A program made the translations under genes and the position numbers. Of a stretch of 64,000 nucleotides of DNA, positions 10,342 through 45,830 are shown piece after piece. The notes beneath the pieces are model-generated. The model did not search any database. It was not told the origin of the DNA and saw only the letters and a list, made by a program, of their open reading frames with translations. This DNA is from Dictyostelium discoideum. Its lineage: Eukaryota. The stretch's first letter is position 1. Each line of letters starts with the position of its first letter. The stretch is taken from NCBI GenBank assembly GCA_000004695.1, contig CM000153.2, forward strand, positions 1,792,001 through 1,856,000. The letters run 5' to 3'.

Positions 10342-10372
10342 CCGACGATATATGGGTAGGCGAAAAAAATTT

Positions 10373-10445
10373 CGCCCAAAGGGGGGCTCGAACCCCCGAC
10401 CACAAGGTTAAAAGCCTTGCGCTCTACCGACTGAGCTATCTGGGC
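10373..10445 (-). tRNA. tRNA-Lys (anticodon UUU), 73 nt
   Basis: Reverse complement of 10373-10445 is GCCCAGATAGCTCAGTCGGTAGAGCGCAAGGCTTTTAACCTTGTGGTCGGGGGTTCGAGCCCCCCTTTGGGCG. The acceptor stem has 7 bp with one G-U pair. The D stem is GCTC/GAGC. The anticodon stem is CAAGG/CCTTG with loop CTTTTAA. The T arm is GGGGG-TTCGAGC-CCCCC. The ORF track's minus-strand ORF 10236..10502 is the tRNA being translated. Confidence 0.85.
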
Positions 10446-10477
10446 ATTTTTGAATTTTAAATTAAAAATAAACCCAA

Positions 10478-21904: not shown

Positions 21905-27220
<5,316 letters not shown>

Positions 27221-30956: not shown

Positions 30957-31078
30957 AACCAATCGATTGTTTCTTTATCTTTAATTGTAACAATCATATC
31001 ATTATCAATTAGATTTGAGGTAATTTCTTTCCATTTCTATGATGATTCATTACGTAAAATTGAATGTAATTGTTTTAG
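30957..31078 (-). repeat. Degenerate duplicate (about 92% identical, 120 bp) of an internal coding segment (32648-32770) of the adjacent 1068-aa gene, abutting that gene's stop codon
   Basis: Plus strand 30957-31078 accaatcgattgtttctttatctttaattgtaacaatcatatcattatcaattagatttgaggtaatttctttccatttctatgatgatt... aligns with 32648-32770 gccaatcgattgtttctttatctttaattgtaacaatcatatcattatcaattagatttgaagtaatttctttccatttcgatgatgatt.... The internal copy encodes SSSKWKEITSNLIDNDMIVTIKDKETIDWLS; the downstream copy carries an in-frame TAG (TCG to TAG). Confidence 0.6.
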
Positions 31079-34000
31079 TTACAGATCAATATTTTTTGGT
31101 TTTGATTTATAGAACATTATAAATGGTTCCAATTGGTGTTTATATTTTTTAAATAAGTAATCTATAATATCTTGCTTATCTGAAAAATTTTTGTATATAA
31201 TTATACCAAACCATTCAACCATATTAGATGATAATGGTTTATCCGAATAACAATTCTCTAATTCGTTTAAAACCCTGTTGTTATTCGAACCCTCTTGTTC
31301 ATCATTACCATTATGACTCTCAAATAAAGTATCTAATATAATAAATGATTCTAAATCAAATGTTTTAATTATTAATTTCAATACATTATATTCTAAAAAT
31401 GGTTTTTTTAAACGATTTTCCTTTCTGAATTTTAATTCATTTTCGAAATAATGTAAAAATAAATTAATTCTTGGATTATTATGATCCAAAAGTATTTTAG
31501 AAAATGTTTTTATATTAAGTCTAACTTTACCAATATCAATCACTGTTGAAATTATAAATTGGTATAAATCGTTATTATTTCTACTTGTAAATATGTATTC
31601 GAACGTATATACTGATGTATTTAAATTATAATAAAGTAATGGTCTTTTATCATCGCCACTCTTAGGATCTCTAAAAATGGTAATATATGATGCAATAATT
31701 GGAGATAATATTTTTAAATAATAGTATGAAATGTGAGCTGAACGATCTATTTCAATATAGTTTGATATTAATTGATGAGCTGTTTTGATTTGATCAATTG
31801 TTAAATTATTGACTCTAATTAACTTTAAATATAAGAAATTTAATATTAATGATAGATTTGGTAATGATAATTGACAATCTTTAAATTTATTAATTAAAAA
31901 TAGAATCATATCAATTAAATCTTTATATAAATATTTGGATGTATAGATTCTATCATGATTATGATCTTTAAATGCTTTTTCATTTAATATTAAATCTTTA
32001 TCAATTAAATTATCAAGAATAAATTGAACACCTTCAAAATTTAAAAGTTCGATAAATGTTTGCAATAAAAAAGAGGTTTCATTTGGAAAGTTATTGAAAT
32101 TGACTTTAATTTTAGAGAGATTGATTATTTGACATGTTTGTTGAGTTGGTATTTTGTATTCTTGGAATTTTTCATTTTCATGATAACCTGCTGAATAGTC
32201 CCAATTCTCTCCTTGATCGAGGTATGAGTTAATATAAAGCCTTCTTAAATTGTAATTTAAAGTTTTAATTACTAAAGTACCCCAACCAGTATAGTCCACC
32301 AATAACTCGTCTATAGAATCACAAATAAATCTTAGGTATTTCATTGAATTTCTTGAACCAAATTGAATTACTTGAATCATATAATACTTAAATAAATCTT
32401 TATTGTCATTAAAGTTTGATTGGTTTAAACCATTGATTAATGATTCAATATCATCATGAGTACGTAAAATGTGAATATTACACAACTGTTTATTTGAATC
32501 TAAAATTGGTAGTACTTGCTTAAATTTGATTCTTGCATAATCTAATAATTCCGATGTACTAAAATCAAGTTTCATTTGTTTTAATTTTGAATGTAAAGCA
32601 TTTCTTATATTTAAAATACTACAACCACCTGTTTCTATATCTGATAGCCAATCGATTGTTTCTTTATCTTTAATTGTAACAATCATATCATTATCAATTA
32701 GATTTGAAGTAATTTCTTTCCATTTCGATGATGATTTATAACCTAAAATTGAACGTACTTGTTTATTACCCAAATCATTAAGTTTCTTTGTTGATATTAC
32801 ATCATTTAGTGGCTTTTCATCAAAATATTCTATAATGATTGATTTTTGTGATGTGTAGATTTTGTAGAACATAAAAATATCGTTTATATTAATATGATTA
32901 TTTTTGAATAAAATATCGAAATATGATTCACAAATATATTTTGAATCTAATTTTCCAACATTGATTTTTAAATTTTTTTTCAATAGATACTTTAATATAT
33001 TGGTGTTATAGGTTTTTGTCATGTAATATATTAATAATAATTGAACTTCTTCATTGAGTTGAATGGTATCAATTGGTTCATTATATTTTTTTAAATAAAA
33101 TGCATATAAAATAATTGATTTTGATTCAATGATTAATAATTGAAATAATTGTTTAATTGATTGAGATATTGTACAACGTCTATGTTTACCATTTTCAATT
33201 ATTAAATCAATTTGAGTTTGAATTGATGCTGGTATACTTTTTGAATTACTATAATAATCATTGTTGCAATAATACAATTTAAAATATAATAAAACTGAAT
33301 TGATAGATAAAGAGATACACTCAAAATTTCCTTTAACATGTTTTATGTAGTTATAAATAGCATAATCAAATTCAAAACAAAGACTAGAAAGCATATTTAA
33401 ATGAATTATTCTATAAACAGAACGCCCAATATTTTCATTTCCCAGCTTATCAATAGAGAAAAAATCCCATGAAATTCCATTAGAGAGACTAAATCTTGTT
33501 TGAATATTCTTAAATCCAAAAGGTATTGATTTTTGATATTTTAGATAACAAGCTACATCCGCACCTCTATATATACCTGAAAATATTTTTTTGGAATCTT
33601 GAAATATTGAAGATGGCGATATTGGAATACTCGATATTATTTTCATCTTTTCTTTAAAATCTTCACTACTGATTCCATATTCACAATAATATAAACATTG
33701 ATTAATGAGATAATTTCTTTCATTTTTGGTTAAAGTAAATGGTTTATTATGATTGATGGACTCTTCAAAAAATTTTAAAACCCTTTTTATTAATTTTGGA
33801 TGATTTTTTTCGAAGATTGAGTCTATATGTGTTGTAATATTAAAGGTTTGCAATTCTTCTGGCCTATATTTTATATATATATCAAATAAACCCACTGATT
33901 TGATACCCCAAATCTCTCTGAATAAAATCTCTGGATCCTCTCTAGTATATAGATAACCCTTAAAAAGTAATAATGAATATACCTCTTTGAATACTTCTAT

Positions 34001-34285
34001 ATCTTCTATTTTATTAATGATTTCATTATATCTATCATCATTATCATAAGGATTGAAATCAACATTTCTTTCTATTCTCTTAAAAATTAAATTTTCATCT
34101 GCTTTTAATTTACATATCAAGAGTTGGTATTGTTTATGTTTTATCATTGAACCTATGGATGTAATTGTTTTAAATTTTTTACTTTTATGACAACATTTAT
34201 TTTTTAAAATATAACTTAATAAATATTTATTTTTAAAAACTTTCCAAAATAATAATTCATTATATTCATTATTCATTATTAACAT
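31079..34285 (-). CDS. Hypothetical 1068-aa protein (N/I/L/K-rich), no recognisable domain
   Basis: Single long open frame in very AT-rich DNA; the length argues it is real. Ends ...FYKSKPKNIDL*. I recognise no conserved motif. Confidence 0.55.
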   Translation of the reverse strand: MLIMNNEYNELLFWKVFKNKYLLSYILKNKCCHKSKKFKTITSIGSMIKHKQYQLLICKLKADENLIFKRIERNVDFNPYDNDDRYNEIINKIEDIEVFKEVYSLLLFKGYLYTREDPEILFREIWGIKSVGLFDIYIKYRPEELQTFNITTHIDSIFEKNHPKLIKRVLKFFEESINHNKPFTLTKNERNYLINQCLYYCEYGISSEDFKEKMKIISSIPISPSSIFQDSKKIFSGIYRGADVACYLKYQKSIPFGFKNIQTRFSLSNGISWDFFSIDKLGNENIGRSVYRIIHLNMLSSLCFEFDYAIYNYIKHVKGNFECISLSINSVLLYFKLYYCNNDYYSNSKSIPASIQTQIDLIIENGKHRRCTISQSIKQLFQLLIIESKSIILYAFYLKKYNEPIDTIQLNEEVQLLLIYYMTKTYNTNILKYLLKKNLKINVGKLDSKYICESYFDILFKNNHININDIFMFYKIYTSQKSIIIEYFDEKPLNDVISTKKLNDLGNKQVRSILGYKSSSKWKEITSNLIDNDMIVTIKDKETIDWLSDIETGGCSILNIRNALHSKLKQMKLDFSTSELLDYARIKFKQVLPILDSNKQLCNIHILRTHDDIESLINGLNQSNFNDNKDLFKYYMIQVIQFGSRNSMKYLRFICDSIDELLVDYTGWGTLVIKTLNYNLRRLYINSYLDQGENWDYSAGYHENEKFQEYKIPTQQTCQIINLSKIKVNFNNFPNETSFLLQTFIELLNFEGVQFILDNLIDKDLILNEKAFKDHNHDRIYTSKYLYKDLIDMILFLINKFKDCQLSLPNLSLILNFLYLKLIRVNNLTIDQIKTAHQLISNYIEIDRSAHISYYYLKILSPIIASYITIFRDPKSGDDKRPLLYYNLNTSVYTFEYIFTSRNNNDLYQFIISTVIDIGKVRLNIKTFSKILLDHNNPRINLFLHYFENELKFRKENRLKKPFLEYNVLKLIIKTFDLESFIILDTLFESHNGNDEQEGSNNNRVLNELENCYSDKPLSSNMVEWFGIIIYKNFSDKQDIIDYLFKKYKHQLEPFIMFYKSKPKNIDL

Positions 34286-35184: not shown

Positions 35185-36798
35185 TTAACTTATTGCTTCG
35201 AAAACATAAGGTTCGTGTGTTTGTCTTATGATTACTATGATTGCAATTAAAATAAATACCAAAAATCCAAAGATTGAGAAAGCAACTTCCACAGAATTGA
35301 ATAAACGTCTTGAAAAGCTAGTTGGTTTTGTTAATATTAAATCATCGTCATCATTACTACTACTATTGCTATTGCTATTATTATTATTAGATGATTGATA
35401 CTGTTTTAAAGCCTCGGTAATTTGTGATAAATTGCTGTAAGAGTTTACTAACAACATGTTTTTATCTTCCATATCACTAAGTTTATTATTTTTATTTTGT
35501 AGTAAAAGTTTTAGTGATTTATTTTGCTCTAAAACTGTTAAAAGTTGTAATTGATTTGAAGATGTTGTATTTTTATCATTATTATTATTATTATTATCAT
35601 TATCGTTATCATTGTTACTATTATTATTATTATTATTTTTATTATTATTATCTTTTTCATTATTTACTAAAGTTTGTTGATGTAATTGTAAAGTTTGTTG
35701 AGTTTGAGCTAATTCGATTTGTAGTTTTTGTAATTTTGAATTTAATTTCGTAATGATATTATTTTGATCATTATTTTCTTCGGATAGTGATTTATTACTT
35801 TCAACTTGTGTCTTATTAAATGCTTGAAGATTAACGATTTCAGCTTCTAACATTTCAATCTTTTGAATTAATTCCATATGATGTTGATCATTTGTAACTG
35901 TTGATTGAGTTAAATTATTATGTGCCATTATTTTTGATTGTAATCCAAATGTTGATTCTCCTAATTGATTATTATTATTATTATTATTATTATTTGATTG
36001 AAGTTGTGAAACATTTAAAATATTTTTAGATTGATTTAAAGAATTTGGTTGGGATGAAGTAAGTGGTGGTGTATTTTGTTGTTGTTGTTGTTGTTCTTGT
36101 TGTAGTAATAATTGTTTTTGTTTTTCATTTTCCATATTTATAATTTGATTAAAATATTCTTCAGATTTTTGTGATAAATTATTAAATTTATTTGTTATTG
36201 ATTTTAAATTCTTTTCAATTTCTAAATTTTTTATAATTAATTCTTCTTTTTCTTTTTCAACCAATAAAACTTTTTGTTTTTCTTCTTTATTATTATTTCT
36301 CAATGTAGATAATTGTTTTTTACATTCTTCTACCTGTTTAGCTAAATCATTTTCTTTTTTCTTATATTCTTCTAATTCAGTTGCCATTTGATAATCTCTT
36401 TTCTTTTTTTCTGAATCTTTTAAATTTGATAATTCTTTTTTATTCTTTGTATTCTCTTCTTGAATAGTTTTAATTTCTAAGCAAAGTTTTGCTTGTTCCT
36501 CTTCTAATCTTTTATTTTTTATTTTAATTTCTCTATCATTCTAATGAGAATTATTAATTATTAGTAATATATTAAATACATATGTAAAAGTTAAATAAAA
36601 AAAAATTAAATTAATATGAATATTTACATCTTTATAGTTTTGTAATTCCCTTTTTGTTTGGTATAATTCTTCTTGAAGTTTTTGAATTTGCTCAGGTTGA
36701 TAATAACTCTCACCAAATGAACCACTTACACCTTCAAATTCACCTGAATTACCATAAATTGATGTTGAAAAATAAGCAGGCTTTTGTTGTGGTTGTGG

Positions 36799-36874
<76 letters not shown>

Positions 36875-37946
36875 GGTTGTGGATGTGGTTGTTGTAATTG
36901 AAGTGGTGAATGAGTTAAATTGTTATTACCTTCATTATTGGTATTGTTATTATTACTATTATTGTTGTTGTTGTTGTTGTTGTTACTATTATTAGTATTA
37001 TTATTGATTGAATTTTTCCCATCTTTATAATCACCTAAATTATTAATTGGGTGATTTTGAAAGTCATCAACCTCTAAACTATCATTTAATGATTGTTTAT
37101 CTTGTTTTTCCATTAAACTAATGATAACACTATTTGATACGTAACCATCATCAAATGGAATTCTAAGTAACATCTCTTGAAGCATATCTTCTTCTATATC
37201 TGGAAAAAGATCGAATAGAATATACTTTAATTCAGTTTCTGACGTTTTATTATCTGGATTATCTAAAATGTATTGGAATTTCAATTCTGATGATTGATTC
37301 ATCTCTGATTGTTGCTGTTGTTGTTGACTGTCGAAATAATAATTTTGAGGTGTTTGAACAAAACTTGATGGTTTTGCTGGTGTATTTGACGGGAACATAA
37401 TTTGACTATTATGATTCTTTTTAACTGTATAATGTGGTGAAGGTGGTACTATATTATTATTATTATTATTATTATTTACATTATTATTATTTGTTGTGGT
37501 TGTTGTTGTTGTTGATGATGTTGTTACTGTTGATGATGATGATGATGAGTTGCTACTAAAAATTGAAGATTTAAGAGCAGATGAAGGTTTTTTTACACTA
37601 TTTGCCATATTCTCACTAAATGTTCTAATTAAAATATTTTTTGAAGGTGATTCATATGGTGATCTTAAAAGTGAGGAAGAACCCGAATAGTTGGTTGGGT
37701 GTAATTGTAAAGAAGCTCTTTTGTTTGATGAACCACTGTTTCCCTCTAAATCGCCTAACTTTAACTCCTTTGAATCAAAACTATCACTGTTTCTCTTTGA
37801 TTTCATTGTTGACGACGAAGATGAAGTTGTTGCTGTAGTTGCTGAGGATGTTGATGTAACAAATACTTGTTTATCTAAATCTAAAAATTCATTTTCATTA
37901 TATTTTACAAATTTATTTTTATATGTTTCAATGTTATCATTATTAA

Positions 37947-37977
<31 letters not shown>

Positions 37978-38211
37978 GTTTTCATTATTTGTATTATATA
38001 AAGGAATAGAGGTTGAGTTAGAATTTGTAGATGGTGATGATGAATTTAAATCTATTATAGTTTCATCGTTATTTGAATTTGTAGTTATACTTTTTAGATA
38101 GAAGTCGCTAGTACTATTGTTTGTGTTGTTATTTGAGCTCATTATGTTTATGTTATTATTATTTTCGTTTGGAGTTGTAGGTGTTGAATCTGTTTGTGAT
38201 ATTATATCCAT
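35185..38211 (-). CDS. Tail-anchored coiled-coil protein (golgin-like architecture) of about 979 aa; 2 exons, 38211..36628 and 36540..35185, joined by an 87-nt intron
   Basis: ORFs 36541..38211 and 35185..36387 share one reading frame and are separated by a single TAG. The upstream ORF's tail (VNIHINLIFFYLTFTYVFNILLIINNSH) is intron read-through: donor GAT|gtaaat at about 36627 and acceptor tctcattag| at 36541. The splice gives ...ELQNYKD-NDREIKIKNKRLEEEQAKLCLEIKTIQEEN..., a continuous heptad-rich coiled coil. The C-terminus FSIFGFLVFILIAIIVIIRQTHEPYVFEAIS* is a tail-anchor TM. The N-terminal half is low-complexity (poly-N, Q37, S/T). Confidence 0.65.
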
Positions 38212-38669
38212 TATTTGTATATATTTATATATGTATATTTTATATGATTATAGTTTATATTTTTTTCTCGACCCCTCTTTACCACTTATTATATTATTAT
38301 ATTATTACTATACAATTGATAGATAGAAATATATTTATTATTTGTTTATAAAATGTATGAAAAACAATTTAAAAGCTTACGCGCTCTTTTTTTATTATTA
38401 TTTTATTTTTTTATTTATTTGTTTATTTATTTATTTATTTATTTATCTATTTGTTTTTTTATTTATTTATTTATTTATTTATGCGGGTGTGTTGCTTTTA
38501 TTATAATAATACACAAAAAAAAAAAAAATTTTATTTTGGCAAAATAAAAAAATAAAAAAAAAATGAAAAAATTTAAAAAAATAAAATTAAAATGTGTAAA
38601 AGAGGTGTTTTAATTAATTGATAATGCCAAAGATAGGTAAAGACACTAAAATAGAAACAAATGCAATTT

Positions 38670-38705
<36 letters not shown>

Positions 38706-39880
38706 CAAAATTCTTTTTTTTTTTTTTTTTTTTTTTTGGGTCCAAACATGACCCCCTTTTTAGGGCCCCAAAAATTTTTTTTTTTTTTTTTTTTTGAAAC
38801 CCACATTTTATACTTTTTTTAATTTTATTTTTAAAAAAACCTTTTAAAAATTTTTTTTTTTTTTTTTCCTTTTTTCCTTTTTTTTTTTTTTTAAAAAACC
38901 ATTTTTACTTAGTAACTATATTTTAAATTTGGACATTCAACAATTTCCTAAAAAAAACATTGGTTTTTGGTAATAAAAAAAAAAAAAAAAAAAAAAAAAA
39001 AATAAAAAATAAAAGAGAGTGGGGAGAATTGTAAACTTAATTTTTTTTTTTTTTTTTTTTTTTAATTAAAATTAATTAGAGTAGCGTAATGCATATGTTC
39101 TTATAATAGATTTAAAATAAAAATCTTAAACACTATTTCTTTTTCAAAATGTTTTTTAAAAAAATTAAAACTATAAATACTCATTTTTAATAATCATTTC
39201 AAAACAATATTTATTAATTGTACCATTAAAAATGTTATTCAGTATCATTTCTATTTTGTTTACTACTTTATTTGAATTTATAAAAAAAATGATTGAATAA
39301 ATTATTTAAGTAATAAAAAAAATTAAAAATAGTTATAAAAAGAAATAAAAAATTTATATAATTTAAATGGTAAACTTTTTTTTGTTTTGGGAATTTATTA
39401 GTAAAAAAAAAAGAAAAAAAAAATTCTCCATGGATCTGTGTTTAATTTTGTTTTAAATATTGTGTGTTTGATGTTTTTGAAATTTGCAAATTTTACAAAA
39501 CAAACAGATTTTGACATTTAGTATTAATTAAAAAAAAAAAAAAAAAAAAAAGTGACCATTTTTTCTTTTTTTTTCTCCCCCCCCCCTAATAATAATTTTG
39601 AATATAACTTAATTAAAGATCATTAATATAATTTAATGTTTTTTTTTTTTTTGTTTAAAAAAATAATATCTTTTAAAAATTAATGTTTAAAAAAAAAAAA
39701 ATTTAAACAATTAAAATTAAATAAAACTTATTTAATTTTGTAAAACTAAAAAAAAACAAAAAATTTTATTAAGTTTTTAAATAAAATAACAATATTAATT
39801 TTTTAAAAAAATAAAACAGGTAACTTTTAAAATTAATATTAATAAAATTTAAAAAAAAGTGAATAAAAAAAAAAAAATTT

Positions 39881-40080
39881 AATGTTATTTTTGAATCCAT
39901 TCAATCAATTGTCAAAATCATCATCAAACTCTAAAGCGATGCCAACCTAAATTGAAAATCTCAAACTATGAATATGTTATTTAATTATTGGATAATGCCA
40001 AAGTTTTGAATGGCAACAAAGGAAACAAAAATCAACATTTTGGGTGAGAATCTCCATGATGCCAATTAAATAAATCACTC
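39881..40080 (+). pseudogene. Frameshifted degenerate paralog of the small MLF... gene at 40487-40739
   Basis: ATGTTATTTTTGAATCC... encodes MLFLNPFNQLSKSSSNSKAMPT*. A shifted frame then gives KVLNGNKGNKNQHFG, compare [17 protein letters not shown] in the intact copy. The motif ggataatgccaaag recurs at 38624 and 39981, and an ATGTTATTCAGTA start recurs at 39231. Confidence 0.3.
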
Positions 40081-40325
40081 ACTTTTTTAAAATAAAAATT
40101 TAAATAAATTATTTTATTAAAATTTAATTGTAAACAATTTTTTTAATTATTTTTTTTTTAAAAAAATTATTTATAACCAAACATTGTTTTTTTATTTAAG
40201 TAGTTCATTAAAATGATCCTGGTTAAATTTTTTTTCTGTTTTGACAATTTTATTTTATTATAAGATTTCAAACAAATTATGTTTTCTCTCTCGAGAACAT
40301 TTAAATCTAATATTTTATAGATTTA

Positions 40326-40367
<42 letters not shown>

Positions 40368-40486
40368 GAAATTTTATTTAATTATATAATTGTTTTTTTT
40401 TTAAAAATTAAAAAAAAAAGTGTATAAAAACCAAAAAAAAAAATGAAATAATAATCCAATACTTTATTTAATTAAAACTAAAAAAA

Positions 40487-40739
40487 ATGTTATTCAGTAA
40501 GTTTTAAAAAAAATATATGAAATAATAATGAAAAACCTCTCTAATACTGTTTTTTTATAATAGAATCATTACAATTAATTTCATTGAAATCATCATCATC
40601 AAACTCAAATACTACATTTGGAAATGTTTTATTAAATGGACAATATCAAAGTATCAACAACGTTACATTCTTAGATCATACCAAGGCTTTAGCAGATAGC
40701 GCAAAAAATAAACTCAATGCTGCAATGCATAATCTATAA
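40487..40739 (+). CDS. Small (62 aa) S/N-rich protein of an unrecognised paralogous family; 2 exons, 40487..40496 and 40564..40739
   Basis: ATGTTATTCA|gtaagt with acceptor tttataatag| gives [61 protein letters not shown]. The splice signals are canonical. Degenerate copies nearby support a gene family, but the function is unknown. Confidence 0.4.
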
Positions 40740-41607
40740 AAAATAAATAAAATTTATTCATTTATAAACCATTCCTATTGGTGGATCCATGCCATCTGAA
40801 CCAAAATCATTCCAATTTAATAATAACAGTTAAATTAAAATATTTTTACTAATTATTAAATAATTTATCATTTAGATGTAAGATTTATCCTTAGATGTAA
40901 GTTTCTTGGTTCATCAATATCTTTTTAACCAAGTTCATTTTTACCCTCGAAGAATTATTATTTTGATTATTTTGATTATTTGGATCTCTCTTTATTTACT
41001 ATTTGATTTTGACTATCACCTTTTTTTTTTTTTTTTTTTTTTGAATTGGATATTGCAATCGTTAATATAATTTTTAAAAAATTTTCATAATAAAAATAAT
41101 AAAAAATAAATGTATAAAGAAATATGTGAATGAGTAAAATAAAAAAAAAAAAAAAAAAATATAAAATTTCTTTTTATTTCATTTTTTTTTTTTTTCGAAT
41201 TTCAAAACCCGTAAAATTTCAACGTTTTAAAACAATTAAATTAACCTTGGGTTTCAAAATAAAAATAAATAAAAAACCCCCCCCTGTAAAAATTATTAAA
41301 AAAAAAAATAAAATCAAAATTAAATAGGGCACCAAATGAAAAAATAGTAGTTACTAGGATTTTAAAAAAATAAAAGAAAAAAAAAAAAAAAAAAAAAAAA
41401 AAAATAAAAAATTAATTATTCACTTTTTTTCACAATTAACATCAATAAAGGCCGAAAATACAATGAATACCCACTACTACAACTACTACTCAACCAATTC
41501 CATTTGATTATGAAGAAAGAAGAAGAATATTATTTATTGATCCATATGATAAAGAAAGAATTGATGGCTATAACAAAGAACTTCGAAATTTATATAAATT
41601 TCAATTA

Positions 41608-43617: not shown

Positions 43618-44471
43618 TTATTTTAAAAAAAAAGAAAAATAATAATAATAATAATAAAATAACATACGATTTTGTTTTTTCTTTACAGATACAGGTTGTT
43701 GTTGAGTGTTTGGTTGTTGAGTTCTTCTTCTTGTTCTTGTTGTTATTCTTGATTCATTGTCGACCATTCTCATTGATTCTTTTTCTTCTGAAATTCTCTT
43801 TTGTCTCTCTGATAGGGTAGTAACCATTTTCTCTCTGAGATGAGTTGCCTCTTCTTGATGTTCATCTTCGTATTGTTGTCTTTCGGCTTCATACATATTC
43901 ATAATACTTTGAATTTGATAATTTTTCCAATTCTCTGCGATCATTAATTTTTTATCTTTTTTATTCTCTAATTCTCTTATTCTTTCTTGAAAACTAATAT
44001 GTTCACCTATTTTTTGAAAAAAAGAAATAATAAGTATATAAAATAAAACTACTAAAATCTATATTATATAATATATTTACCTAATTTTATCTCGTCAATT
44101 TCTTTTTTTAATTGAGTTAATTTATCATTAAAGAATTTTTCTTTTAAATCGGTAAACTCTTTTTCTAATTTTTCCATATTTCCCAAACACTCTAAACGTT
44201 TCTTTGTTTCTAAATCAGCTTCTTTGTTTGCACTATAACTACTCTTTGCGATTGAAACCTCTTGATTCCTATCTTTTGCGAAAACAGATTCATACTCTTC
44301 TTCCATATCATCGTCATCATCGGTTACACTATTAGTTACACCATTTGATCCTACATTTTTCGGTGATGTTACCACTATATTATCTGACATTGTCTGTCTC
44401 TTTTTCTCTAATTCTTCTTCAATCTTTGATTTATCAACTTCTTCATATGATTCTCCTCCATTTTGTTTTTC

Positions 44472-44504
<33 letters not shown>

Positions 44505-44773
44505 GTTGGTAGTTGTATTCGAATTATTTGGAGGCGTTGAAGGAGATGGAGCTGTTTTTTCTTTATTCTTTAAATCTATATTACTATTTGATTCTATATT
44601 AATTGGTGAATCCCTTCCTTTTTCTTGTGTACCATTTGTATTATTATTATTGTTATTATTGTTATTATTATTATTAGTATCAGTTTTTGTTGATACTGAT
44701 TCATCTATAACCATCTCCTCTTTATCATCATTTATTATATTTTCAAGTTTTTTATTTTTATCATTGTCATTAC

Positions 44774-44845
<72 letters not shown>

Positions 44846-45830
44846 TACTATTATTACTATCTACATTTTTATTTTCTTTTTCATTATTATTATTATTATC
44901 ACTACTATCTATTATTGGTGGTGATGATTCTTTACTTAATTCTTCTTTACCATTAATATTTTTTACATTTTCTTCTTGTTTCTTTTCTTTATCTACATTT
45001 TCAAAGTTTTTGTTATCTTTTTCTTCTAATTTTTCTTCAGGCTTTTCTTGAGGTTTATCTTGAGGTTTTTCTTGAGGTTTTTCTTCTGACTTTTCTTCCT
45101 TTTCTTTTTCTTTATCCATTTCCTTTTCTTTTTCCTTTTCTACCTCTTTTGTTTCATTTTCTACTTTTTTTGTTTCCTTTTCTACCTCTCCTATTTCCTT
45201 TTCGACTTGTTTTGTTTCTATTTCTTTTTCTACTTCTTTTTCTTTTTCTTTTTCCTTTTCTTTTTCTTTTTCTTTTTCTTTTTCTTTTTCTTTTTCTTTT
45301 TCTTTTTCTTTTTCTTTTTCTTTTTCTTTTTCTTTCTCTACTTCTTTTTCTTTTTCTACTTCTTTATCTTTATCTTGTTGGTCTTTCATTACCTCATCCT
45401 CTTTTTCCTTTTTATCTTGTTCTTTTTTCTCATCTTTTTTTTCTTCAACTTTTTCCTCAATTTGTTGTTTTGGTTTTTCCTCAACATTAGTTTCATCTTT
45501 TTTCTCCTCTACTTTTTTTTCTGTTTCTTTCTTTTCTTCTTTAGATTCACCTTTTTCATCGGTTTTTTCTTTTTCATCTTTACCATTAACAGAGGTGTTG
45601 TTATCGTTTGTTTGATTTTCTTGTTTACTATCATCTTTTTTTACATCTGTTGTTGCTGTATCATCACTCCCACTACTCTCTTTTTTATTTTCTAAATCTG
45701 CAGTTGTTGAATCAGATGCTGTGGCATCTTTTTTTGGTTCATCAACTTCCATTTTTTGTTCTTTTTCGCCATTTAATATCTCTTTACTACTATCTTTTAA
45801 TTCTTTTGATTTCTCTTCATCTGATTTCAT
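43618..45830 (-). CDS. Sds3/BRMS1-like (Sin3-HDAC corepressor subunit family) protein with a highly charged (EK)n-rich N-terminal half; 2 exons, 45830..44081 and 44006..about 43618
   Basis: The exon A tail is ...KKRLECLGNMEKLEKEFTDLKEKFFNDKLTQLKKEIDEIKL with donor G|gtaaat. Exon B after acceptor caaaaaatag| is GEHISFQERIRELENKKDKKLMIAENWKNYQIQSIMNMYEAERQQYEDEHQEEATHLREKMVTTLSERQKRISEEKESM. Together they form the Sds3-like domain (ECL..mE.LEkEF..lKe..f..kl..L..E...I..G.H..F.E....LE......Y.aE). The N-terminus has (EKEK)n encoded by (CTTTTT)n on the plus strand. The 3' end is uncertain because the final 20 codons run into a poly-Y tract. Confidence 0.65.

Follow-up and report, generated by a model that had tools for sequence, protein, structure and literature searches.

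A late-induced, prestalk-enriched micro-gene of Dictyostelium discoideum and the probable remnants of its tandem duplicates

The gene DDB_G0284283 of Dictyostelium discoideum is a live, lineage-restricted micro-gene. It belongs to a unit of roughly 600–700 bp, and the DNA upstream of it probably holds three degenerate remnants of that unit in the same orientation, produced by tandem duplication and since decayed. The window, by which we mean the whole 64-kb stretch of DNA analysed, comes from D. discoideum AX4. The spliced product read from positions 40487–40739 is 100% identical to DDB_G0284283, which is annotated in NCBI and UniRef as a hypothetical protein. The parts of the live unit, which we refer to as unit D, are as follows.

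40420..40432, + strand: TATA-like element GTGTATAAAAACC, putative core promoter, 55–67 nt upstream of the ATG
40487..40496, + strand: coding part of exon 1, ATGTTATTCA, specifying Met-Leu-Phe and the first base of Lys4; the spliced product is DDB_G0284283
40497..40563, + strand: phase-1 intron of 67 nt, GTAAGT...AATAG, 16% GC
40564..40739, + strand: coding part of exon 2, 176 nt including the TAA stop, 27.8% GC; expression data exist for this gene model
40742..40751, + strand: two overlapping AATAAA hexamers directly past the stop, putative poly(A) signals

The coding sequence is 186 nt and the product 61 residues. An earlier, sequence-only reading had placed a gene with a GTAAGT...TAG intron at these coordinates, and this stands, but it had counted 62 residues and had set the intron after codon 4, when in fact the intron splits codon 4 after nucleotide 10, in phase 1. 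If the intron is retained, the frame meets a stop after 6 codons. The GC content falls from 27.8% in exon 2 to 16% in the intron and 11–12% in the surrounding spacers, and the exon 2 codons end in A or T, as is typical of the host. Within the window, the layout of a mini-exon 1 and a short intron is unique to this gene. Its neighbours are a minus-strand gene with its start at 38211 and a plus-strand gene at about 41460.

Published RNA-seq tables reveal that DDB_G0284283 is silent in growth, is induced rapidly at 14–16 h and is expressed about 35-fold more strongly in prestalk than in prespore cells. In supplementary file 5 of Kin et al. 2018 (PMC6198379), which is restricted to conservatively called cell-type-specific genes, the values are 0 from hr00 to hr08, 10 at hr12, 787 at hr16, 438 at hr20 and 127 at hr24. 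Prestalk cells score 1183 and prespore cells 33; in the fruiting body, the stalk has 15.4, the cup 0.09 and spores 0, with 0 also in vegetative cells. The gene is listed under the filter_UP class 'Hr14_rapid' in supplementary file 7 of Rosengarten et al. 2015 (PMC4403905). The developmental RNA-seq check proposed with the sequence-only reading is thus answered by strong and specific transcription. The supplements searched of a 2026 life-cycle proteome have no entry for DDB_G0284283 and so give no evidence of translation; the supplements of Gloeckner et al. 2016 likewise have no entry, and a full-text literature search with the identifier gave no match. We conclude that this is a real, already annotated gene: the reading of its 61 codons as a chance ORF falls because the gene is annotated and is strongly and specifically transcribed.

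Upstream of the live unit, blocks resembling parts of it recur in the same orientation, and we assign them to three relics, A, B and C.

38596..38673, + strand: relic A, candidate mid-gene fragment containing GATAATGCCAAAG, 27% GC; reciprocal best match with relic C at 39960–40070 (shuffle p≤0.003)
39188..39244, + strand: relic B, candidate 5' fragment with a 5'UTR-like block TAATAATC...ATTAA, exon 1 with its ATG at 39232, and the opening three bases of the splice donor; reciprocal best match with 40440–40510 (shuffle p<0.001)
39420..39440, + strand: possible 3' remnant of relic B, AATTCTCCATGGATCTG, weakly resembling relic C at 40043–40066 and the live 3' flank at 40779–40800
39851..40075, + strand: relic C, candidate disabled, intron-less copy; reciprocal best match with live unit D across the whole window (shuffle p<0.001)

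For relic C, the best reading is a duplicate of DDB_G0284283 that has been disabled. It consists of a TATA-like block at 39851–39877, an ATG at 39882 and a 22-codon ORF ending at 39950, followed by frameshifted remnants, and the MLF...KSSSNS reading is retained in recognisable though frameshifted form. The blocks are collinear with those of the live gene on the same strand, from the TATA-like box through the 3' part; the upstream block, AAAAAAAAGTG[T/A]ATAAAAA, is near-identical to the live TATA-like element. The relic forms an island of 28.5% GC over 193 nt, compared with 27.8% in the live exon 2 and 11% in the spacers. Relic B shares with the live gene a 15-nt exact repeat, AAATGTTATTCAGTA, which is ATGTTATTCAGTA plus two bases, and its possible 3' remnant has the 8-mer TCTCCATG in common with a partner at an offset of 626 nt. 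The 13-mer GATAATGCCAAAG links relic A to relic C, occurring at 38620 and 39991 with a different base before it. ATGTTATTCAGTA and GATAATGCCAAAG each have exactly two occurrences in the 64 kb, all of them in the spacer region and on the same strand. The ATG-to-ATG spacing of the units is 650 and 605 nt. Only from this collinearity and spacing do we infer that B and A, which contain no ORF at all, may once have been genes, and a direct comparison of relic A with the live gene gave no significant match (p about 0.09, shuffle test).

Most of these repeats had been noticed in the sequence-only reading, and small corrections are needed. The copy beginning ATGTTATTTTTG... is present, its frame breaks and KVLNGNKGNKNQHFG appears in another frame, as described, but it starts at 39882 instead of 39881 and the break comes after 22 codons. 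The recurrence of ATGTTATTCAGTA is exact but lies at 39232, one base from the position given (39231), and the motif shared by relics A and C recurs as 13 nt at 38620 and 39991 and not as 14 nt at 38624 and 39981. The description of the region as otherwise gene-free is borne out, with no other credible ORF, Rfam match or tRNA: between 38212 and 40486 there is no ORF of at least 60 residues apart from low-complexity artefacts, Rfam (E≤1) returned no match and ARAGORN no tRNA, and a non-coding RNA or tRNA-linked element was rejected on these grounds. A transposon origin for the repeats, which would have told against a gene family, finds no support either, since the 38212–40486 interval holds no transposon-type ORFs and the best matches of the unit are all local, with none elsewhere in the window searched.

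The case for duplication rests on composition-weighted chain alignments over approximately 1270 windows on both strands, in which C with D, the 5' part of B with the 5' part of D, and A with the middle of C are reciprocal best matches. By these matches and by the shuffle tests (p≤0.003), the copies, which are collinear, run in the same direction and lie about one unit apart, show similarity above the genomic background. The relic alignments beat the next-best window narrowly, for example, by 72 to 59 and by 31.8 to 29.9. DDB_G0284283 could instead be a single gene without a family, the recurrence of ATGTTATTCAGTA, GATAATGCCAAAG and ATCATCATCAAACTC in very AT-rich, low-complexity spacer being due to chance or to short regulatory words in common. 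Several results are of the kind that such an account would predict: isolated 13-mer repeats within 2.5 kb of each other arise at roughly one per 5 kb of the window by a rough count; a comb test for periodicity of the units was not significant (p=0.066); tblastn of the 61-residue protein against the window found no copy above noise; and relic C, marginally the top match in plain local DNA alignment, is within the top 2% of windows when gap penalties are stiff. The 2.3-kb spacer itself has three such 13-mer repeats. We regard this account as unlikely. It must accommodate three independent reciprocal-best pairs falling in one 2.3-kb interval, on the same strand and collinear, when the chance of a single best match landing there is very roughly 2%, since about that share of the searched windows lies in the spacer on that strand. 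It must also accommodate the shuffle results and the GC island of relic C, which matches the live coding sequence in length as well as composition.

Two further accounts concern the coding status of the units. If a non-coding tandem repeat came first and its 3'-most copy alone gained an ORF, an intron and a prestalk promoter, then A, B and C would never have been coding, which is in keeping with the orphan status of the protein (no homologue was found in another organism or species), with the lack of protein evidence and with the lack of any ORF in relics B and A. We think this improbable, given that relic C has 28.5% GC against about 11–15% for non-coding DNA of this genome and keeps its ATG with the frameshifted MLF...KSSSNS reading, and that relic B preserves exon 1 exactly together with the first three donor bases. 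The exon–intron structure is taken to be older than the duplication because these features of relic B would otherwise be hard to explain. A non-coding transcript under developmental control, whose 61-codon ORF is incidental, seems to us very improbable. Proteomic detection and conserved homologues are both absent, and spurious ORFs of at least 60 residues do occur elsewhere in the window; against this, a canonical intron places the only available ATG in frame with an exon-wide ORF, exon 2 has a coding-type GC content and host-typical A/T-ending codons, and Rfam gave no match.

On the preferred reading of tandem duplication and decay, the DDB_G0284283 unit would have been amplified locally, plausibly through slippage or unequal exchange between long A/T runs, which lie on both sides of each unit, and indels and drift towards AT would then have inactivated every copy except the 3'-most. 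In relic C, an imprecise deletion may have removed the intron, and the frame is broken by premature stops and two or more frameshifts; since coding-like GC is still present there, this copy would be the most recent to have died. Relic B would have been reduced to the 5'UTR, exon 1 and donor, and relic A to a mid-gene block. The locus resembles generic birth-and-death tandem arrays in having one live copy with co-oriented, progressively decayed copies at about unit spacing, marked by indels and frameshifts, and differs from them in that the unit is unusually small, about 0.6–0.7 kb with a coding sequence of 186 nt. That only fragments are left is attributed to decay, which quickly erases copies in spacer of 15% GC. 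The sequence-only reading had proposed a small tandem family in birth and death; the decay is supported, with C best read as a disabled duplicate, but birth is not demonstrated.

The protein matched itself alone in a word-indexed search of 5.8 billion proteins, and phmmer against 1.84 billion representatives returned it and two long, low-complexity proteins judged to be spurious, with the qualification that E-values scaled to billion-sequence libraries are blind to a 60-residue paralogue at 30% identity. Pfam hmmscan at E≤10 gave 0 families, and a metagenome contig scan yielded 600 pattern matches, of which 0 were confirmed. No homologue was found in other species. The chain has a Ser-rich N-terminus, contains 2 Gly and no Cys, and lacks a Gly-rich segment of hydrophobic character. 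A single-sequence AlphaFold2 model of low confidence (mean pLDDT 64) has a helix at residues 36–59 with pLDDT of about 80. The Ser/Asn-rich N-terminal half is probably disordered, and the C-terminal part is predicted to be an amphipathic Ala/Leu helix of some 24 residues.

The gene invites comparison with the sigN, or HssA/2C/7E, family (PF05710). Of the 96 sigN genes, 89 combine a 13-nt coding exon 1 with an intron of 66–128 nt and a second exon, and in three (sigN132, sigN176 and sigN183) exon 1 is 10 nt. The products are shorter than 120 residues; Ser, Gly and Cys are abundant in them, some cysteines are conserved, and one hydrophobic segment is rich in Gly. Prestalk expression and tandem clustering are seen in the tested genes of Groups 1 and 2 (Vicente et al. 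2008, PMC2257962). DDB_G0284283 is similar in its 10-nt exon 1, phase-1 position, 67-nt intron and 176-nt exon 2; in its product of fewer than 120 residues with a Ser-rich N-terminal part; in its prestalk-enriched induction during multicellular development; and in its probable local tandem organisation, as in the closest (Group 1/2) members. It differs in having no Cys, 2 Gly and an amphipathic Ala/Leu helix where the family has a hydrophobic C-terminal half rich in Gly and Cys, and in being induced at 14–16 h and not at 10 h. The PF05710 'Coiled' profile found no match in the protein, whereas in the same run the D. purpureum HssA/2C/7E protein P0005 scored 73.9 bits (E=1.9e-20). An hhalign comparison with two PF05710 proteins, a thin profile drawn from searches with an HssA-like sequence and a D. 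dimigraforme member, gave a probability of 0.2% and E=0.26 over 11 columns. In the list of 96 genes of Vicente et al. 2008, which uses old DDB IDs and was matched by structure, no row combines chromosome 4, a 10-nt exon 1, a 67-nt intron and 61 residues. The nearest is sigN176 (chromosome 4, 10-nt exon 1, 93-nt intron, 62 residues), and identity with it was rejected, as a 93-nt intron requires AG at 40588–40589, where the sequence is AA. The sequence-only reading had not recognised the protein and had overlooked the match in architecture to sigN/HssA-type small prestalk genes.

A speculative reading, and a rather doubtful one, is that DDB_G0284283 is a radically diverged sigN/HssA offshoot that kept the mini-exon 1 (M-x-hydrophobic), phase-1 intron, prestalk promoter and tandem amplification, while exon 2 was replaced or re-invented to encode a Cys- and Gly-free amphipathic-helix peptide. 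In a related alternative, the ORF may have arisen outright de novo from repeated spacer. If the offshoot reading were true, the upstream relics would record a recent, failed local expansion and the locus would be a snapshot of Dictyostelium generating new small developmental proteins.

By description, the gene is also like the class of SRCP1 in being small, developmentally regulated and prestalk-expressed. SRCP1, of 88 residues, is described as a member of a large class of small developmentally regulated proteins of D. discoideum (Santarriaga et al. 2018, as cited by Wu et al. 2021, PMC8554618). Preferential prestalk expression was seen for five of six members tested, and single knock-outs of six members had no developmental phenotype (Wu et al. 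2021), which fits a redundant, fast-evolving class. The parallel does not extend to polyglutamine aggregation, on which SRCP1 is reported to act. By analogy, the DDB_G0284283 product would most likely have an accessory role in prestalk and stalk cells, as a small protein that evolves fast and can be dispensed with. It would act in the manner supposed for sigN/HssA-type small prestalk proteins, and its predicted C-terminal helix may serve in partner binding or self-association.

The significance of these findings is largely confined to Dictyostelium biology, and the process is probably one of ordinary local gene duplication and decay. An uncharacterised 61-residue orphan gains a clear expression phenotype, late and prestalk/stalk-specific with a very high peak, and its architecture connects it with the small prestalk proteins of the large sigN/HssA class. 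The gene might supply a compact promoter or a marker for prestalk cells, and it could provide a test case for the origin of orphan micro-proteins in an extremely AT-rich genome. The unannotated relics, if correctly read, document the turnover of this class through local duplication and rapid decay.

The flagged spacer (38212-40486; 2,275 bp) has a GC content of 15% in a window that is itself very AT-rich (~22%). It is bounded by the minus-strand ORF 36541..38211 (ATG at 38211) and by a plus-strand mini-gene at 40487, and within it an ORF scan gave no credible ORF, Rfam at E<=1 gave no match and a tRNA search found none. The mini-gene is laid out as ATGTTATTCA / GTAAGT...AATAG / AATCATTACAA...TAA, and reading of the sequence gives the following features.

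40487-40496 (+), exon 1
40497-40563 (+), intron, 67 nt, phase 1 (within codon 4)
40564-40739 (+), exon 2
55-67 nt upstream of the ATG (+), TATA-like GTGTATAAAAACC
after the stop (+), two AATAAA hexamers

Splicing yields a coding sequence of 186 nt, 61 codons and a stop. Without splicing the frame ends after six codons, and the first ATG of exon 2 is only at residue 58; the 61-aa product therefore needs the 40496/40564 splice. It matches 'hypothetical protein DDB_G0284283 [Dictyostelium discoideum AX4]' at 100% identity. The GC content of exon 2 (27.8%, versus 26.9% in neighbouring coding sequence, 16% in the intron and 11% in the spacers) agrees with that of a coding exon. The intact mini-gene with a gtaagt...tag intron proposed in a sequence-only reading is borne out in these two exons; its length of 62 aa had included the stop, and its intron 'after codon 4' lies within that codon.

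DDB_G0284283 is demonstrably a real, already annotated and expressed gene. It appears in supplementary file 5 of Kin et al. 2018 (PMC6198379), which is restricted to conservatively defined cell-type-specific genes. Its values there at 0, 4, 8, 12, 16, 20 and 24 h, from the data of Parikh et al. 2010, are 0, 0, 0, 10, 787, 438 and 127, so that the RNA-seq check across development proposed earlier finds the gene transcribed, with its peak at 16 h. The same file gives prestalk 1183 versus prespore 33.5, and TPM values of 15.4 for stalk, 0.09 for cup and 0 for both spore and vegetative; from these values and the adjacent rows, we infer that the row belongs to the 'Stalk' sheet. In a second, independent study (Rosengarten et al. 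2015, PMC4403905, supplementary file 7), the gene is present in the filter_UP sheet, by count in column 24, 'UP_Hr14_rapid'. As regards translation, its identifier was not found in the supplements of a 2026 life-cycle proteome.

Decayed copies of the live unit are the best-supported explanation of three upstream sequences, and we hold it, as the sequence-only reading did, here with moderate confidence.

39851-40075 (+), relic C, probably a pseudogene
39188-39244 (+), relic B, probably a 5' fragment
38596-38673 (+), relic A, possibly a fragment

Because A/T runs overwhelm plain alignments of the spacer, similarity was scored as log-odds weighted by local base composition, each query being run against all windows of the 64 kb, on either strand. 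With the spliced live unit (40400-40760) as query and cheap gap extension, the best non-self match was 39701-40200, with a score of 72 (next locus 59, 99th percentile 54, n=1264), and the reverse query, 39840-40080, returned the live gene. A CDS-only query ranked the relic C region first under three scoring schemes, by a narrow margin, and stiff-gap alignments placed it only in the top 2%. Two further pairs are reciprocal best hits: 40440-40510 (5'UTR, exon 1, donor) with 39180-39250 (27.7 versus 24.7 and 22.3), and 39960-40070 with 38596-38670 (33.7 versus 27.3 and 33.1 versus 26.3), the relic margins over the next locus being small. In dinucleotide and block shuffles, p was <0.001 for relic C with the live unit, <0.001 for the 5' part of relic B with the live 5' region and <=0.003 for relic A with relic C; 38590-38800 against the live gene was not significant (p ~0.09). 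All matches are collinear and share one strand, and start codons at 39232, 39882 and 40487 follow one another at intervals of 650 and 605 nt; a periodicity comb test gave p=0.066. The tblastn search of the window with the 61-aa protein found no protein-level copy. ATGTTATTCAGTA occurs exactly twice in the 64 kb (39232 and 40487), as does GATAATGCCAAAG (38620 and 39991); both recurrences had been noticed earlier, at coordinates off by 1-10 nt and with the second motif counted as 14 nt where it has 13. Isolated 13-mer repeats are not rare within the window.

With 28.5% GC over 193 nt, relic C forms an island between spacers of 11% GC, equal to the live coding sequence in length and composition, and it bears AAAAAAAAGTGAATAAAAA, a match to the TATA-like block. 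At 39882 (39881 in the earlier reading, which had likewise seen the frame break) it reads MLFLNPFNQLSKSSSNSKAMPT*, with KVLNGNKGNKNQHFG in a different frame. It is without the intron, ATGTTATT being followed by TTTG and then AATCCATTCAATCAATT (live exon 2 has AATCATTACAATTAATT), and it contains early stops and at least two frameshifts. Relic B retains 15 exact nt spanning exon 1 with its ATG and the donor's initial three bases, together with the TAATAATC...ATTAA block of the 5'UTR; beyond these its reading meets stop codons. Relic A keeps a mid-gene block only.

Near its 3' end, each unit has one GC-rich motif conforming to GGTG(A)GA(A)TC(TC)CATG(AT)GCC (40779-40800, 40043-40066, 39420-39440 and 38734-38760), which in the live gene sits ~40 nt past the stop. 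The recurrence may be due to chance, or the motif may serve the unit as a conserved 3' or terminator element. In what is presumed to be the 3' part of relic B, ~1 kb ahead of the live gene, the G-box-like TGTGTGTTTG (39463-39475) may act as a cis-element in development. Long T runs broken by GGGTCC, GGGCCCC and ACCCAC islands (38660-38900) and a long C run from 39577 (39577-39586) are unusual for a spacer of 15% GC and might derive from relic A or reflect poor assembly.

A unit of ~0.6-0.7 kb would have been duplicated in tandem, with the long homopolymer tracts bracketing each unit as plausible partners in unequal exchange or slippage, and all copies except the 3'-most would then have been inactivated. 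Since relic B has the exon 1 and donor start of the live gene, the intron would be older than the duplications, and relic C would therefore have lost it secondarily. An origin of the ORF de novo from a non-coding repeat is a less likely alternative, as the coding-like GC of relic C and the exon-intron boundary conserved in relic B both suit it less than they suit duplication and decay.

Elsewhere in the window, a near-exact direct repeat of ~80 nt (30959-31037 and 32648-32726, 1689 nt apart) has one copy within the minus-strand 1068-aa ORF 31079..34285 and the other just past its stop, and looks like a duplicated gene fragment. CCCAATTGACCATAC... recurs at 26399-26420, 26631-26650 and 26831-26845 (spacings 231 and 201 nt), in units conserved at the DNA level, within the minus-strand 1771-aa ORF 21905..27220, which by eye looks like RCC1-type repeats with an inositol-5-phosphatase-like domain. 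The sole tRNA gene is tRNA-Lys(UUU) at 10372-10446 (-). A 588-aa ORF, 44064-45830 (-), which contains Asn runs and an extended (EK)n / KEKE repeat, falls in the windows where GC and AT skew peak.

The first 35 residues of the DDB_G0284283 protein are S/N-rich, and a single-sequence AlphaFold2 model (mean pLDDT 64) has one confident element, a predicted helix at 36-59 (pLDDT ~80) that appears from a hand-drawn helical wheel to have an Ala/Leu face. Inspection by eye showed nothing resembling a signal peptide or a transmembrane segment, in line with the earlier description of an S/N-rich protein with a helical C-terminus and no signal peptide. A Pfam scan gave no family. A word-indexed search of 5.8 billion proteins returned the self-match only, and exhaustive phmmer against 1.84 billion representatives added two long low-complexity proteins only, with E-values scaled to such huge libraries that a 30%-identical 60-aa paralogue would escape them; among metagenome contigs, no relative was confirmed.

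The 96 sigN-related genes (HssA/2C/7E, Pfam PF05710 'Coiled') encode proteins of <120 aa, and in 89 of them a single short intron of 66-128 nt separates a 13-nt coding exon 1 from exon 2; exon 1 is 10 nt in sigN132, sigN183 and sigN176 (Vicente et al. 2008, PMC2257962). On chromosome 2 the closest members lie in two tandem clusters, and these Group 1 and Group 2 genes show induction at 10 h and prestalk expression (PMC2257962); single knock-outs of six genes of the sigN-type class were without developmental phenotype (PMC8554618). DDB_G0284283 resembles these genes in architecture, intron phase, size class, prestalk specificity and local amplification, but is without the family's Cys/Gly-rich C-terminal half. 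The PF05710 profile does not match it (a true family member scores 1.9e-20), hhalign against an alignment of two PF05710 proteins gave a probability of 0.2%, and the published 96-gene list (PMC2257962) contains no row with its structure. Identity with sigN176 (chromosome 4, 62 aa, 93-nt intron; PMC2257962) was rejected, as the sequence has no AG where a 93-nt intron would need its acceptor. DDB_G0284283 is sigN-like in workings and looks, yet is not classed as a member of the family. On the reading preferred here, the locus holds a prestalk gene, small and lineage-specific, accompanied by pseudogene relics, ordinary birth-and-death in a gene class known for it.
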